From assembly GCF_030013595.1 (NCBI RefSeq), contig NZ_CP122768.1: a stretch of DNA of 64,000 nt, one strand, 5' to 3'. The position numbers were made by a program, and so were the translations under genes. Below, in pieces: positions 4,694 to 34,386 of the stretch. Below the pieces are notes generated by a model. It was not told where the DNA came from. It saw nothing but the letters and a program-made list of their open reading frames with translations, and searched no databases. Source of the DNA: Escherichia coli (lineage in GTDB: Bacteria; Pseudomonadota; Gammaproteobacteria; Enterobacterales; Enterobacteriaceae). Each line of letters begins with the position of its first letter. The first letter of the stretch is position 1.

Positions 4694-5290
4694 TTACACT
4701 TCCTCCGGATTAGCCAGATAACCAGTGGTATCGCCGGTCGGGCGGCTGTTGGCGTTAGGTTTGATAACGATATTGGGTTTTGTGAAATGCGCGCGCGGTA
4801 GTGGCGCGACGGCAGCCAGAGTGCCGTGCTTCTGGCGCAGCTCTTCAATTGGACCGAACTCAAGTGCACGCAGCGGGCAGGATTCGACACATATGGGTTG
4901 TTTCCCCTCGGCGACGCGCGAATAACAACCATCGCACTTCGTCATGTGTCCTTTTTCAGCATTGTACTGTGGCGCGCCGTACGGACAAGCCATGTGGCAG
5001 TAGCGGCAGCCGATACAAACATCTTCATCAACCACCACAAAGCCATCTTCACGCTTATGCATTGCGCCGCTGGGGCAGACTTTTGTACATGCGGGGTCAT
5101 CGCAATGGTTACAGGAGATGGAGAGATAATAAGCGAACACGTTCTGGTGCCAGACGCCGCCAGCATATTCATAAATACGGCGGAAACTGACTTCCGGGCC
5201 AAGATCTTTAAAATCTTTGCACGCCAGTTCGCAGGTTTTACAGCCAGTACAGCGGCTGGAATCGATAAAAAATCCATATTGTGTGGTCAT
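4694..5290 (-). CDS. ynfG: DMSO-reductase-type 4Fe-4S ferredoxin subunit
   Basis: 198 aa; four CxxCxxCxxxCP-type cysteine clusters; between ynfF and ynfH. Confidence 0.85.
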   Translation of the reverse strand: MTTQYGFFIDSSRCTGCKTCELACKDFKDLGPEVSFRRIYEYAGGVWHQNVFAYYLSISCNHCDDPACTKVCPSGAMHKREDGFVVVDEDVCIGCRYCHMACPYGAPQYNAEKGHMTKCDGCYSRVAEGKQPICVESCPLRALEFGPIEELRQKHGTLAAVAPLPRAHFTKPNIVIKPNANSRPTGDTTGYLANPEEV

Positions 5291-29359: not shown

Positions 29360-31831
29360 TTAAGAATCAGCCTGACTCGGGATCAGTTTTTGCCAGATAA
29401 CTGAAACGTATTTTGCTTGGTAACGGGCGTCATCAAGTGCATTATGGCGCTCACCTTCGAATGGAATAGCCGTTCTGGCATCGAAATCTATGGCTTTCCC
29501 CAGCTCAACGATTGTGCGTACATCGCGATCGTTGTAGTAACGCCACGGGCAGGGGATCCCCTGCCGTTCGTATGAACGGCGCAAAATCGTGTTGTCGAAG
29601 TTGGCTCCATTTCCCCAAACCTGAACAAAAAATTCACCGGAGTTTTCGTCGATAAATTCCCGCAATTGTAACAGTGCATCATCTAACGGGATTTCATCGG
29701 TCATAATGGCAGATTGTGCTTCGCGTGATTGCTTAAGCCACCATTTAATGGTGTCCCGATCAATGACTCCGCCAGCAGTTTCCAGATCGATAGTCTTACT
29801 AAATTCCGGTCCTATATCTCCGGTTTGCGGATCGAAAAATATTGCACCTATTGAGATGATCGGTGCATCAGGATTTTTTCCCATGGTTTCAAGGTCGATC
29901 ATTAGATGGTCACACGTCCTGCTGGTGGATGTGATTTTGTGATGACCGTTCACCTTAATTGAGTGATCTGCCGTCTCGCCAGTTTCATTATCGCTATTGT
30001 GATGCTGATTGCCGCCAGTGTTCTCCTTGTGTGGATGTTCAGCGCCTTCCATTTCCTCCGGATCATCTTCCTGAACTTCAACCTGATACTCTTCATCGAA
30101 TGTTTCTTGGTATGTTGCGTCGCCCATCACCGCGCCACAATCAGGGCAGTTGCCGCCGCCGGTCTGACCGCAGGCGGTGCAGACTTTTTCCACTTCCTGT
30201 TGCGCCACTGGTTCAGGCTGTTTCGTTTCTGGCTCGTTTTGTAACGCATTTGGGCTGTTTTGTTCCGCTTTTTGGTAGTTCCGTTCCGATTCATGCTGGT
30301 TCTGGTTCACAGAATCGCGGGTCTGGATCCCCTTAACCCATTTCGGATCATTCGGGTCACTAATCCCTTCAACAAATTCACCATGTGATGCAGCAAGCAA
30401 CTTATCGGCGTCAGGCTGGCTGATATTGGCTGCCTGCATAATTTTGTTTACTTCGTCAGCGGTAACTTTTATCGGCTCTGGTTGTTCTGAATCTTCAGCG
30501 GTATCTACATTTTGCGGTAAGCCCGTGTATGTGCCATTTTTTCGGGCAAAATATTCTTCTTTTGTGATTTCAGTGGCGCCAGCAGCCAGTGCCTTATCTA
30601 GACCAGAAAGTTTGTTTGCGCGACCGTATTTTTCTCCGTCCTTATCTGCGAAGAGGAAATAGAACGGCCCCTCACGCTCTACAGATGGTTCAGCTTCCGG
30701 CGCGGTTTCATTTTTTGGGATATCAGATACCTCAGTTTCCACTGCATCAGTTTGTGTTTCTGATGACTGGAGAACATCAACAGTGCCCAGGTCTGTTTCT
30801 TCATTCTCAAACACGCCCTTTGTCGTCAGGTATTCGCAGATATATTTGTTCAGTGCTACGGGATCTTTGTGAATGTCGATCGGACGCTCACGGACAAGGC
30901 CAAAAATAGTTTGGCGGTCGTAGCGAAGGGCATCAGGCTGTTTGCGCATTGATGCCGAGATACGCTTCCAGTCTTCGCGGTCGTTGTCGATAACTTCTTT
31001 TTTTGCCCAGCGATGGATGCTGCCGTCAATGTTTCCGGCATCCACATCACCAGGCCAGAGAGCGTAGGCCAGTTCGTCATCCAGTGTTTTCCATGTCTGC
31101 TTGTATTCGCGATGAATGGCAGCAATGACCGGGCTGATTTTTCCTGTTGAATTTTCAGTGTACTGTTGATTGGCTCTGGCGCGGGCGAGATCAACAACAG
31201 ACGTGTATTTTCCGGTTTCCTTGCGTTCACCTTCGCGACGTTTTTTCCAGATGCGCATCTCTGCCTGAATTTCGGGCCATTTAGCACCAGGAATACATTT
31301 ATGCTTAACCCACCCAATGGCGTGCAACTTAAGCTCCGGATACATGGCGTTAACTTCTGGCATTTTCATCAACGCTTCAACGATATGTCCGTCGAATGTT
31401 GCCATGTCTTCCTGCAACAATTCCTGTGCGCTAATAACCATATCAACGGTGATGTTTTCACATGTGTCGAACTTAACCATGACAGCGTTCTGTACTTCAG
31501 GGGCCAGCTTGTCAAAAGTGACGTTCATCGGATCGGATTCAGTCTCAACCGGGACAAAAGAAGCAGACTCCTCATCCCAGCGGTTTTCCTGCATATATTC
31601 AGCATCCCATGAATCGAGGGCAGGGCGGGGTATGCCAGGTTTATCCTCGCAGACAATAAATTTATAAGCGCAGTCCTGAGCAGCCGGATAATGTTCCAGG
31701 AACTGCCAGTGAAATTTTGCTCGAGCACGGCGTTCGTCGCCAGCTTCAATGGCTGTGGCTACAGCCACAGCGCCTTCTTCCCTTGTTGCCAGTTCGTCAG
31801 GAATAGCGGCGCAAATAAAGACTTTACTCAT
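29360..31831 (-). CDS. prophage exonuclease-family protein (C-terminal DEDD-type 3'-5' exonuclease fold)
   Basis: 823 aa; C-terminus has DLET...GxNxxFD...H..LDDA exonuclease motifs; acidic central region. Confidence 0.65.
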   Translation of the reverse strand: MSKVFICAAIPDELATREEGAVAVATAIEAGDERRARAKFHWQFLEHYPAAQDCAYKFIVCEDKPGIPRPALDSWDAEYMQENRWDEESASFVPVETESDPMNVTFDKLAPEVQNAVMVKFDTCENITVDMVISAQELLQEDMATFDGHIVEALMKMPEVNAMYPELKLHAIGWVKHKCIPGAKWPEIQAEMRIWKKRREGERKETGKYTSVVDLARARANQQYTENSTGKISPVIAAIHREYKQTWKTLDDELAYALWPGDVDAGNIDGSIHRWAKKEVIDNDREDWKRISASMRKQPDALRYDRQTIFGLVRERPIDIHKDPVALNKYICEYLTTKGVFENEETDLGTVDVLQSSETQTDAVETEVSDIPKNETAPEAEPSVEREGPFYFLFADKDGEKYGRANKLSGLDKALAAGATEITKEEYFARKNGTYTGLPQNVDTAEDSEQPEPIKVTADEVNKIMQAANISQPDADKLLAASHGEFVEGISDPNDPKWVKGIQTRDSVNQNQHESERNYQKAEQNSPNALQNEPETKQPEPVAQQEVEKVCTACGQTGGGNCPDCGAVMGDATYQETFDEEYQVEVQEDDPEEMEGAEHPHKENTGGNQHHNSDNETGETADHSIKVNGHHKITSTSRTCDHLMIDLETMGKNPDAPIISIGAIFFDPQTGDIGPEFSKTIDLETAGGVIDRDTIKWWLKQSREAQSAIMTDEIPLDDALLQLREFIDENSGEFFVQVWGNGANFDNTILRRSYERQGIPCPWRYYNDRDVRTIVELGKAIDFDARTAIPFEGERHNALDDARYQAKYVSVIWQKLIPSQADS

Positions 31832-31924: not shown

Positions 31925-32116
31925 TTAAAGACCTGCCGGGATTTCGATATTATCCTGGTGAATAACTTTATCGACCGGGTAACAGTTACCGGGAATTTTC
32001 TGTTCGGTTGCTGCAGTCATACACTCCTGCATTGTCCTGTGAACACTGTCTGCAATATCAACTGGCTCTCCGGAAACAAGAAAAACTGTCAGAACAAGCG
32101 CAAATGCTGAATTCAT
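31925..32116 (-). CDS. ydfD: YdfD small lysis/toxic peptide
   Basis: 63 aa from MNSAFALVLTVFLVSG matching recalled YdfD; overlaps dicB stop. Confidence 0.7.
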   Translation of the reverse strand: MNSAFALVLTVFLVSGEPVDIADSVHRTMQECMTAATEQKIPGNCYPVDKVIHQDNIEIPAGL

Positions 32117-32301
32117 TGTGTACATCCTTTTGGCATCAGACGTAAACGAGCCAGCATTGAAACAATGCATATTTTATTTAATAGCTCCCGTTCTTGTTTT
32201 CTCTTGTTAATGGCATCTTCAGTAAATACAGGGTTACTGATAGTGACACCAATTTCAAAACAACCTTCAGACGTATTAACGTTTGGTAATAACGTTTTCA
32301 T
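32113..32301 (-). CDS. dicB: cell-division inhibitor DicB
   Basis: 62 aa MKTLLPNVNTSEGCFEIGV... matching recalled DicB. Confidence 0.85.
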   Translation of the reverse strand: MKTLLPNVNTSEGCFEIGVTISNPVFTEDAINKRKQERELLNKICIVSMLARLRLMPKGCTQ

Positions 32302-32470
32302 TATCGCGTCCTCAACAATGAATTTTGTGATGCAGTGCCTGGTGCCTCCAGGTGACGTTAACCAGTTAACAATTAACGCCGGATACAGAGAATCCACCCA
32401 TAACACTGTTTTTGGTTTTAACTGTTCCGCGTGCGCTTAGCCGCATTCACCGCATCACAAAATTCACTTT

Positions 32471-32528
32471 AAAAACGGCGGCAGAGCAGTCACGGAGTAA
32501 AACTGATACCGCCAAACGTCACCAGAAA
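32471..32528 (-). ncRNA. dicF: DicF small regulatory RNA (ftsZ antisense)
   Basis: Minus-strand sequence TTTCTGGTGACGTTTGGCGGTATCAGTTTTACTCCGTGACTGCTCTGCCGCCGTTTTT matches recalled DicF; located upstream of dicB. Confidence 0.8.
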
Positions 32529-32803
32529 ATTGATAACAGAGGGCGTTGCAGCGGGGTTGTCACTTAAGCGTATGGTCAACCTGACAACTCGGTGTCCTCA
32601 ACGGGGAAGGAATAACCCCGCCATACTTACCGCCGCGCCATTTCGCGGGTTGCCACAACCGGAAGCGCACGGTCGAATTAAATTTAACGACACCGTACAG
32701 TGAGACGAACTTCGCCGTGCGCTTTCGTGTTGTGTGCCTGCTTTTAACCACGTCAGGCGAGGTGGTATCCTTCTTATCCCGAATAACCAAGAAGGAAATC
32801 TAT

Positions 32804-33004
32804 ATGACTAAAGAAGAATTTGTCTCTTATATTTTTGATAAAAAGGTTGAAATGTATGCCGCTACTTACGGGTCCTGTAATCCTCTGAATAAACCAGAGG
32901 GGAAAGATGATTTCGACAAAATTTACCGCTTCTTGGAGGACCGCTATATCAAAAGGTTAGAGGACGCAGGGATCAAATCCCCAGTGAAGTCACCATTGTC
33001 CTGA
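32804..33004 (+). CDS. hypothetical 66-aa protein, opposite strand to dicB operon
   Basis: ATG with RBS AAGGA in an AT-rich patch; no family recognised. Confidence 0.4.
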   Translation: MTKEEFVSYIFDKKVEMYAATYGSCNPLNKPEGKDDFDKIYRFLEDRYIKRLEDAGIKSPVKSPLS

Positions 33005-33350
33005 GAACTTGCAGGACGTCATGATCGTAACTTCCATCCAAACCGCGACGGCAAATTGCTTCTCGTATTACCGGAAGCAGTTCGCTGGAAATCTCGGTGC
33101 ATATTTCACCTGATAATACGCCTGGCTCAAGTGAGAATATTGGTGAACTTACGGTCTTGGTCTCGACAGTTTCAGAGTCAGTGCCAACATTATAAAGCTC
33201 AACGAAAGCGGTCTTGATTTTCCGGGCCAGATCTTTTGCTGGCTCGCTTGCAATATCTTTCCCGATTTCTCGCAGCACAGAATGCAATGTATGAGCTGCT
33301 GTTTTCTGTACATCAGACGGTAAATCTTTAAATTCCATCGTCAGCCTCAT
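32973..33350 (-). CDS. hypothetical prophage protein (dicB operon)
   Basis: 125-aa ORF between ydfA-like and dicF. Confidence 0.5.
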   Translation of the reverse strand: MRLTMEFKDLPSDVQKTAAHTLHSVLREIGKDIASEPAKDLARKIKTAFVELYNVGTDSETVETKTVSSPIFSLEPGVLSGEICTEISSELLPVIREAICRRGLDGSYDHDVLQVLRTMVTSLGI

Positions 33351-33502
33351 CAGTCAGTGTTTCTGGCTAACCAGCAACGCGCGCCAGATTCGGTTTTAAA
33401 CGTTTTGCTTTTGGTATACGTCATCGCGGTGAACGTGCCGTCCTGGTTGGGGAACACGCCACATACCAGAGATTCGCTGTTGCCAAGATCGATAGTATCC
33501 AT
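33350..33502 (-). CDS. ydfA: YdfA-like small protein
   Basis: 50 aa from MDTIDLGN..., first gene of dicB operon. Confidence 0.6.
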   Translation of the reverse strand: MDTIDLGNSESLVCGVFPNQDGTFTAMTYTKSKTFKTESGARCWLARNTD

Positions 33503-33670: not shown

Positions 33671-34078
33671 TTATTTTATTGATTTATTTTTACGCGCTTT
33701 AAGCATTTCTTCGAAGAGTTTGTTGAAGTTTTCTACTCTTGCGCGCATTTCAGACAGCAAGGCTTCCTGCTCGGAAGATGGAAGAGCATCGAATAATTCG
33801 ATCAATTCTTTGTGGTTGGGAGTTAGCTCTGTTTCCACATGAAGTTCTTGTGCCGGCACTGGTGCCTTGTCTTCGTCACCAAACATTAGCCATGTAGGTG
33901 AGCACTTCAGAGCATCCGCTAAAGCAAACAATCGTTTTCCGACTGGCTGGGTTTCGTCTCTTTCCCATTGTGAAATTGTGACGTGAGCAACCCCAGCGAG
34001 GCGCGCAGCTTCTCGTTGTGTTAAGCGTAATTCTTTTCGTCGCGCCAGAACTCGCTGGCCTAGGGTTCTTGTATCCAT
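33671..34078 (-). CDS. dicA: DicA-like HTH (XRE-family) repressor
   Basis: 135 aa; N-terminal HTH LTQREAARLAGVAHVTISQWERDET; C-terminal part close to recalled DicA. Confidence 0.75.
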   Translation of the reverse strand: MDTRTLGQRVLARRKELRLTQREAARLAGVAHVTISQWERDETQPVGKRLFALADALKCSPTWLMFGDEDKAPVPAQELHVETELTPNHKELIELFDALPSSEQEALLSEMRARVENFNKLFEEMLKARKNKSIK

Positions 34079-34155: not shown

Positions 34156-34386
34156 TTGATGCTTAAAGCTGACGCAATTACTTTTTTTGGCAGCAAAACA
34201 AAGCTTGCCAATGCCGCAGGAGTGAGACTGGCAAGTGTTGCTGCTTGGGGGATACTGGTTCCTGAAGGTCGCGCGATGCGTCTACAGGAGGCATCTGGCG
34301 GGGAGCTTCAGTATGATCCCAAAGTTTATGACGAATATCGTAAGACGAAGCGGGCGGGGCGGTTGAACAATGAAAATCACTCCTGA
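34156..34386 (+). CDS. dicC: DicC-like Cro-type regulator
   Basis: 76 aa; C-terminal half EGRAMRLQEASGGELQYDPKVYDEYRKTKRAGRLNNENHS matches recalled DicC. Confidence 0.75.
   Translation: MMLKADAITFFGSKTKLANAAGVRLASVAAWGILVPEGRAMRLQEASGGELQYDPKVYDEYRKTKRAGRLNNENHS

Follow-up and report, generated by a model that had tools for sequence, protein, structure and literature searches.

Does a frame of 66 codons that runs against a dicBF-type prophage operon of Escherichia coli represent a gene, and, if so, what kind of gene could be maintained there? We addressed this question in a 64,000-nt stretch of E. coli DNA (contig NZ_CP122768.1; hereafter the window, meaning the whole stretch), in which the frame, ORF66, occupies positions 32804..33004 on the plus strand, starts with ATG and comprises 66 codons plus a stop. 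An earlier note on this DNA had reported a 66-aa ORF on the strand opposite to the operon, and both its coordinates and its translation were exactly reproduced. Both RefSeq, where it is a hypothetical protein of the WP_000159335.1 type, and PHROG (family 34441, 'unknown function') already list ORF66, and prophage features of this kind are known; our literature search found neither the WP_000159335.1 accession nor the peptide string in any paper. New in the present analysis are the evidence that purifying selection acts on ORF66, its conserved convergent pairing with a neighbouring gene, the equivalence to the sieB slot of other prophages, and a suggested promoter-like block that is shared by differing cargo.

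Coding evidence for ORF66 in a dicBF-type operon

ORF66 forms the ATG-initiated part of a longer, GTG-opened frame on the same strand (32717..33004, +). The AAGGA Shine-Dalgarno site pointed out in the earlier note is present at 32792..32796 (+), with 7 nt from its AGGA core to the ATG, and it is kept in diverged loci. The locally AT-rich patch that had also been described is real but mild, since the GC content of ORF66 (0.395-0.42) differs only modestly from that of its flanks (0.46-0.525).

The landmarks of a dicBF operon are all present in the window. These are the DicF small RNA (32476..32527, -; Rfam RF00039, 72.5 bits, E 4.5e-15), the cell-division inhibitor gene dicB (32113..32301, -; PF05358, E 3e-40), which is the downstream gene of the operon opposed by ORF66, a ydfA-type DUF1391 gene (33350..33502, -), which is the first gene of the early-left operon, and a DicA/CI-type repressor gene with an HTH_3 domain (33671..34078, -). 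The early-left promoter region lies between the repressor gene and ydfA, and a dicC-like gene diverges at 34156..34386. Downstream of dicB, the operon continues with ydfD/DUF1482 (31925..32116, -) and a gene for an 823-aa exonuclease (29360..31831, -); the Pfam families PF07151 and PF07358 cover the ydfD/ydfA-type genes. With these neighbours confirmed by Rfam and Pfam, the earlier placement of ORF66 between dicF and an operon gene, on the opposite strand and inside the dicB operon, holds. ORF66 thus lies within the span of the minus-strand operon, yet it is not a gene of that operon.

The length of ORF66 is not improbable in itself, given that an ORF listing of the surrounding 5 kb contains 58 ORFs of at least 30 aa; conservation is what exceeds chance. 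ORF66 is intact in 26/26 extracted copies, which represent 13 distinct DNA alleles. Between the window and the Cedecea copy, DNA identity is 72.6% and protein identity 71%, with a pS of 0.68, a pN of 0.17 and a dN/dS of 0.11, and the substitutions are concentrated at third codon positions (12/15/28 by codon position). In a six-frame control, the +1 frame was the sole frame open in all lineages and had the lowest pN/pS (0.25; most of the others were near 1). The antisense frame with the same wobble positions as ORF66 had a pN/pS of 0.38, yet it contained 3-5 stops. The lineages compared show zero indels and a constant length of 66 aa. Full-length homologues with 88%, 86%, 71% (Cedecea), 55% and 41% identity occur in enterobacterial prophages, and more distant homologues measure 65 and 73 aa. 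Against the PHROG 34441 profile, ORF66 scored an E-value of 1.7e-49, with residues 1-66 aligned to profile positions 1-66 of 66, and the distant homologues P0020 and P0022 also match this profile (6.7e-22 and 5.7e-14, respectively). ORF66 is under purifying selection.

We are therefore confident that ORF66 is a real protein-coding gene. The earlier note had proposed to judge the ORF by conservation of its reading frame in relatives; the frame is conserved, so that the non-conservation it had named as grounds for dismissing the ORF does not apply. The contrary explanation, that ORF66 is a non-coding open stretch which gene finders call through its Shine-Dalgarno-like purine run, could draw on the abundance of short ORFs in the region, on a tiny family that lacks a known domain, and on the one genome whose intact allele was skipped by PGAP. 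With a dN/dS of about 0.1, 26 intact copies out of 26, and no other frame remaining open down to 41% identity, a chance ORF is very improbable.

Among the close E. coli alleles, every single-step variant is an amino-acid change, which is expected if constraint is weak in cryptic prophages. Some genomes carry truncated or junction-broken versions. The window itself has a private nonsynonymous change at codon 14 (32843-32845), where it encodes lysine (AAG); the other 25 copies encode threonine (22 copies) or alanine (3 copies; L028-L030), and the position is otherwise conserved down to the homologue with 41% identity. In B-DidR, a derivative of E. coli B, PGAP calls ORF66 a 'hypothetical protein' (WP_000159335.1). 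In E. coli EC11 (NZ_CP073360.1, L002 1605..1805), an intact A55V allele was left unannotated by PGAP, which is an inconsistency in the annotation of short genes.

We found ORF66 in 387 of 5426 complete E. coli genomes (about 7%), counting matches to at least 80% of a 351-bp query centred on ORF66, and the Escherichia phage mEp460_ev081 has it in the same arrangement as the window. Among Qin/Rac-type lambdoid prophages, its carriers are a minority. A scan of genome contigs returned one locus, and a scan of viral contigs returned mostly near-identical copies. The family is small, with 17 clusters among 5.8 billion proteins, and it is confined to Enterobacterales prophages. A HMMER search of 1.84 billion representatives gave 12 hits, of which two are new true homologues and two are probably spurious repeat proteins. 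We regarded the similarity of these two proteins, each of about 1400 aa, as chance or compositional. In one of them (P0021; 1401 aa, probably eukaryotic), the repeat 'TIEQVFDxLEERYLxRNEExGxxSP' matches ORF66 residues 18-62 seven times, with a summed E of 7e-10.

The sequence of ORF66 is hydrophilic and has no signal peptide or membrane segment. AlphaFold2 (5 sequences, pLDDT 73.7) predicted a two-helix hairpin with helices at residues 3-21 and 31-54, an aromatic-rich helix interface, and a flexible tail (residues 55-66). Foldseek comparison of this model with PDB and BFVD gave no match better than E = 3.2. For ORF66 and the protein encoded by its convergent neighbour alike, nothing scored above threshold in Pfam, NCBIfam, PADLOC (0 families for both) or PDB sequence profiles. 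As a predicted soluble two-helix hairpin, the ORF66 product most plausibly acts by binding another protein, i.e. as a small soluble protein-binding module.

The convergent partner gene and a probable exchangeable cassette

The neighbour that ORF66 meets is the partner gene (PHROG 33007), located at 32973..33338 on the minus strand. The earlier note had spoken of a 125-aa operon gene, and a frame of this length does exist when read from an upstream ATG at 33350 (32973..33350, -); the likelier start, which is supported by PGAP and by homologues, is at 33338 and gives a product of 121 aa. ORF66 overlaps the last 32 nt of the partner gene, tail to tail, and this convergent overlap is retained in three deep lineages (32, 56 and 35 nt). 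The C-terminal ~45 aa of the partner (..ELLPVIREAIRRRGLDGxYDHDVLQVLRTMVTSLG) are co-conserved with ORF66 in all lineages. ORF66 and the partner C-terminal domain stay together; the repressor type, ydfA and dicF/dicB vary between loci.

At L006, L007/L032, L011, L012/L013, L028-31 and in mEp460, the ORF66 homologue lies opposite to early-left genes, 0-1 genes beyond a CI/DicA-type repressor. L011 also contains a tRNA gene (4953..5025, -) in its early-left region, between the ORF66 homologue and the next early genes. In Cedecea, the homologue is found between cro and a CII/CP76 gene, again opposite to the operon, where it has been relocated with the C-terminal piece of the partner only. At this Cedecea locus (L003 3568..3897, -), the partner relic has lost its stop codon and, as a 109-aa ORF, extends antisense over the full ORF66 homologue; of the two strands, the gene caller picked that of ORF66.

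The ORF66 cassette is absent from K-12 Qin, whose homology to the window stops at 32745; in K-12, ydfB and ydfC, both on the operon strand, take the place of the partner gene and ORF66. In the operon type represented by E. coli a15, homology to the window stops at 32772 and is followed by another plus-strand ORF. This ORF (NZ_CP122492.1, L009 2607..2927, +) is unannotated, encodes 106 aa with hydrophobic, membrane-like stretches, and occupies the position equivalent to ~32800 of the window, where it comes after the CCAC..GGTGGTATCC block that is also found before ORF66. It had no Pfam or PHROG match. The 106-aa ORF lies wholly antisense within a 205-aa minus-strand ORF that begins with YdfB sequence, and it is unlikely that both are real.

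The N-terminal ~50 residues of the partner are also found joined to other C-termini. Other convergent small ORFs overlap the 3' ends of the genes for such partner-N-domain proteins in Serratia (L037 3269..3514, -; 81 aa) and in Enterobacter kobei (L036 3239..3469, -; 76 aa), and upstream of the 76-aa ORF of E. kobei stand TGgTATTGT and the same conserved stem arm. Judged by sequence comparison, these small ORFs suggest a slot with interchangeable opposite-strand cargo. Because both the C-termini joined to the partner N-domain and the small ORFs vary, the exchangeable unit would consist of the C-terminal half of the partner plus the convergent small gene. The conserved partner N-domain borders the cassette on one side, and a conserved non-coding block borders it on the other.

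The stem upstream of DicF and the leader of ORF66

The left boundary of the variable cassette is formed by a long imperfect stem in the early-left transcript (32652..32737, -), in which 32711-32737 pairs with 32652-32677 through 24 pairs. It is present in both the MFE and the centroid structures of the minus-strand RNA folded from 32810 down to 32470, with a z of -2.9. In K-12, a 190-nt DicF species is produced by RNase III (PMC10448788). When 190 nt are projected from the DicF 3' end in the window, the cut falls near 32662, within the 3' arm of the stem, and RNase III probably cuts at this stem to release the 190-nt DicF precursor. K-12 Qin and E. kobei have conserved both arms, as has Rac, where they lie between sieB and kilS; the Rac kilS sRNA may be processed likewise at the equivalent stem. 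Since the arms are conserved beyond the carriers of ORF66, ~1800 E. coli genomes match just the first ~73 nt of the 351-bp query. We considered the block at 32711-32737 as a promoter element of ORF66 and rejected it, as it pairs with 32652-32677 and is conserved in K-12, which has no ORF66; we assign it to the early-left transcript instead.

Between this stem and the ORF66 ATG lies a leader with the sequence CCACGTCAGGCGAGGTGGTATCCTTCTT. It contains a candidate sigma-70 promoter (32744..32771, +) with TTAACC at 32744-49, a 16-nt spacer, TATCCT at 32766-71 and an extended -10 TG at 32763-32764. The candidate has 8/12 consensus matches; this is one below the threshold of a simple promoter scan (9 of 12), which explains its absence from the scan output. 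L006, L007, L011 and L028 retain the GGTGnTAT(CCT) core, and Cedecea has an approximate version of it. The GGTGnTAT block can also be seen upstream of Rac sieB, of the 76-aa ORF of E. kobei and of the 106-aa ORF of a15, but not in K-12 Qin, where an opposite-strand gene is lacking as well. The promoter-like block upstream of ORF66 may be its own promoter, for which the correlation between block and cargo is the best evidence. The distribution further suggests that one promoter-like block (CCAC..GGTGGTAT), beside the DicF/KilS processing stem, could serve as a docking site for different opposite-strand cargo (sieB, ORF66 and others). Internal promoters were not found in the K-12 dicBF operon (PMC10448788); K-12 lacks the ORF66 cassette, so that this result does not bear on the cassette. 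No terminator-like site was detected on the plus strand between 33004 and 33850, and a transcript of ORF66 would therefore continue, in antisense, through the partner gene and ydfA into the early-left promoter region.

Elsewhere in the window, the plus strand has a promoter-like TTAACA-16-GAGAAT (32366..32393; 9/12 matches) that is aimed antisense at DicF. If active, its transcripts would be complementary to DicF as well as to the DicF precursor, and would read through to ORF66 with the Shine-Dalgarno site occluded.

The leader also contains an inverted repeat (32768..32796, +), in which TCCTTCTT (32769-76) pairs with the Shine-Dalgarno stretch AAGAAGGA (32789-96), and which can hide the Shine-Dalgarno site in any plus-strand RNA started upstream of 32769. 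Five lineages have comparable leader stems of 6-11 bp. The stems of the window and L011 differ by double changes at pairs 6 and 8, and those of L007, L011 and L028 contain U-G pairs that are valid solely on the plus strand; the otherwise unrelated leader of L012 forms an 8-pair stem. In shuffling controls, the hairpin had a z of -2.2 to -2.9 in three lineages and was weak in three others. We thus have moderate confidence in a predicted leader hairpin that would occlude the Shine-Dalgarno site. Since the 5' arm of this hairpin and the candidate -10 of ORF66 overlap, the true start would lie further upstream if the hairpin acts in the mRNA. We examined promoters upstream of the hairpin (TTGTGT, TCGAAT/TACAGT and alternative sigma factors), and none was both convincing and conserved. 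A transcript that starts ~7 nt after TATCCT would lack the 5' arm, and promoter and hairpin would be compatible if the hairpin silences only read-through RNA from upstream. This arrangement resembles the 'fold-back' of IS10 (Davis, Simons and Kleckner, 1985), which reportedly protects the transposase start site from outside transcripts; in both cases, an inverted repeat would hide the ribosome-binding site only in transcripts begun upstream of the element's own promoter. The analogy is purely structural.

Proposed working, alternatives and known systems

On balance, we lean slightly towards the view that ORF66 is an independently transcribed, lysogen-expressed, moron-like accessory gene in the sieB slot, which would encode a small soluble binding protein and be shut off by antisense early-left transcription on induction. 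In a lysogen, the DicA-type repressor would hold the early-left promoter off, and ORF66 would be transcribed from its weak -35 and extended -10 (TTAACC-16-TGgTATCCT) and translated from AAGGA. The inverted repeat over the -10 would keep upstream read-through transcripts untranslated. On induction, early-left transcripts would run antisense across the entire ORF66 message, and polymerase collision together with RNase III cleavage of the duplex would silence ORF66, much as sas, an RNA derived from the PL transcript, does sieB in P22. The product may bind another protein in a conflict between prophage and host or between phages. We infer the promoter, the timing of expression, the antisense silencing and any part in exclusion or defence; a role of ORF66 specifically in superinfection exclusion or defence is rather unlikely.

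A different possibility is that the transcript matters and the peptide is incidental. Transcription from the ORF66 side would then act as antisense RNA or through interference, damping leaky early-left transcription towards the toxic dicF/dicB or, in Cedecea, in the PR operon. ORF66 opposes an early lytic operon at every locus, the relocated one included, and, with no terminator, its transcript would reach the partner gene, ydfA and the early-left promoter region; RNase III is also known to act on the dicBF operon (PMC10448788). A pure antisense function would have no need of the strong purifying selection on amino acids, the third-position bias, the freedom from indels and the fixed length of 66 aa, and we consider this explanation quite improbable, although an antisense function could still be a second role of ORF66.

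ORF66 and the partner could also act as a pair, for instance with ORF66 neutralising the C-terminal domain of the partner, or with mutual control via the overlapping 3' ends. At every locus, ORF66 occurs together with at least the C-terminal ~45 aa of the partner, and just this piece was taken along in the Cedecea relocation; the convergent overlap is maintained in three deep lineages, and other partner C-termini are each met by a different convergent small ORF. The same pattern would arise if physical overlap alone forced co-inheritance and if the conserved N-domain and the RNase III-stem block were natural recombination boundaries for the cassette. From two convergent genes one would moreover expect expression of either one or the other, not of both together. 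When partner, linker and ORF66 were modelled as one chain with AlphaFold2, from only 9 sequences, the result was poor (pLDDT 46, pTM 0.28) and lent no support to a complex, with ORF66 less confident than when modelled alone. Neither protein had a PADLOC, Pfam or NCBIfam hit, including to toxin-antitoxin or known defence families. The two genes are convergent, in contrast to the co-directional two-gene layout of toxin-antitoxin systems. Joint action of the two genes is unlikely, but less so than a function of the transcript alone.

Combining the accessory-gene reading that we favour with the exchange of cassettes leads to a broader and tentative proposal, to which we assign a low probability. 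ORF66 and the C-terminal domain of the partner would form a previously unrecognised, exchangeable sieB-slot cassette, whose lysogen-expressed helical protein would either provide a new form of exclusion or defence or restrain an early lytic protein, and would be turned off via antisense RNA and RNase III, with different small genes placed behind the same promoter block. Should ORF66 be expressed in lysogens, it would be one more of the few genes kept on while the lambdoid early region is silent, and prophage genes that are on in lysogens usually matter for phage-phage competition or host fitness. It adjoins DicF and DicB, two well-studied products of prophages with effects on cell division, metabolism and phage resistance; convergent transcription beside them could therefore influence the leakiness of a toxic operon in ~7% of E. 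coli genomes, including B-DidR.

The backbone that the window has in common with the dicBF operon of K-12 Qin (ydfABC-dicF-dicB-ydfDE) comprises the DicA-like repressor, ydfA, the RNase III stem, DicF, dicB and ydfD; unlike the window, K-12 Qin has no opposite-strand gene at the position of ORF66. Prophage accessory loci are typically antisense to lytic genes and have their own promoters (PMC7067206). ORF66 is likewise antisense to lytic genes, present or absent among homologous operons, lower in GC and equipped with a candidate promoter, as a moron would be. Unlike a clean intergenic insertion, it overlaps its neighbour by 32 nt, and no terminator of its own was found. The earlier suggestion of a moron or antisense-embedded gene is thus supported by the conserved frame, the presence/absence pattern, the lower GC, the conserved promoter-like element and the orientation, but 'embedded' has to be qualified, given that only the last 32 nt of one CDS are overlapped and that ORF66 otherwise lies between operon genes.

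In the window, the order is repressor, ydfA (DUF1391) and partner on the minus strand, ORF66 on the plus strand, and DicF, dicB and exonuclease on the minus strand. In Rac, racR, ydaG and ydaF (DUF1391) on the minus strand are followed by sieB on the plus strand, convergent and with a 4-nt overlap, and then by the kilS sRNA, kilR and recE on the minus strand; in lambda, N (-) abuts sieB (+), followed by ral, ea10, cIII and kil. Gene by gene, the layout of the window corresponds to that of the sieB prophages. SieB is a membrane-associated protein of 162 aa in Rac and, from its coordinates, 184 aa in lambda, which differs from the hydrophilic, 66-aa ORF66 product with its predicted soluble helical hairpin. 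We rejected ORF66 as a SieB homologue, as a BLASTP comparison with Rac SieB returned no alignment at E <= 100 and ORF66 has neither a Pfam hit nor a membrane segment. With no sequence similarity to SieB, the analogy is one of position, and probably of regulation, rather than of family membership. In P22, sieB is under the control of the antisense RNA sas (PMC12197685, PMC7067206), and sieB is described as prophage-expressed (PMC10461980). The sieB genes of Rac and lambda share with ORF66 both slot and orientation, in that each is an opposite-strand gene within the early-left operon that converges on one of its first genes and lies upstream of the division-inhibitor block, and the Rac sieB region also has the conserved stem and the CCAC..GGTGGT block of the window.
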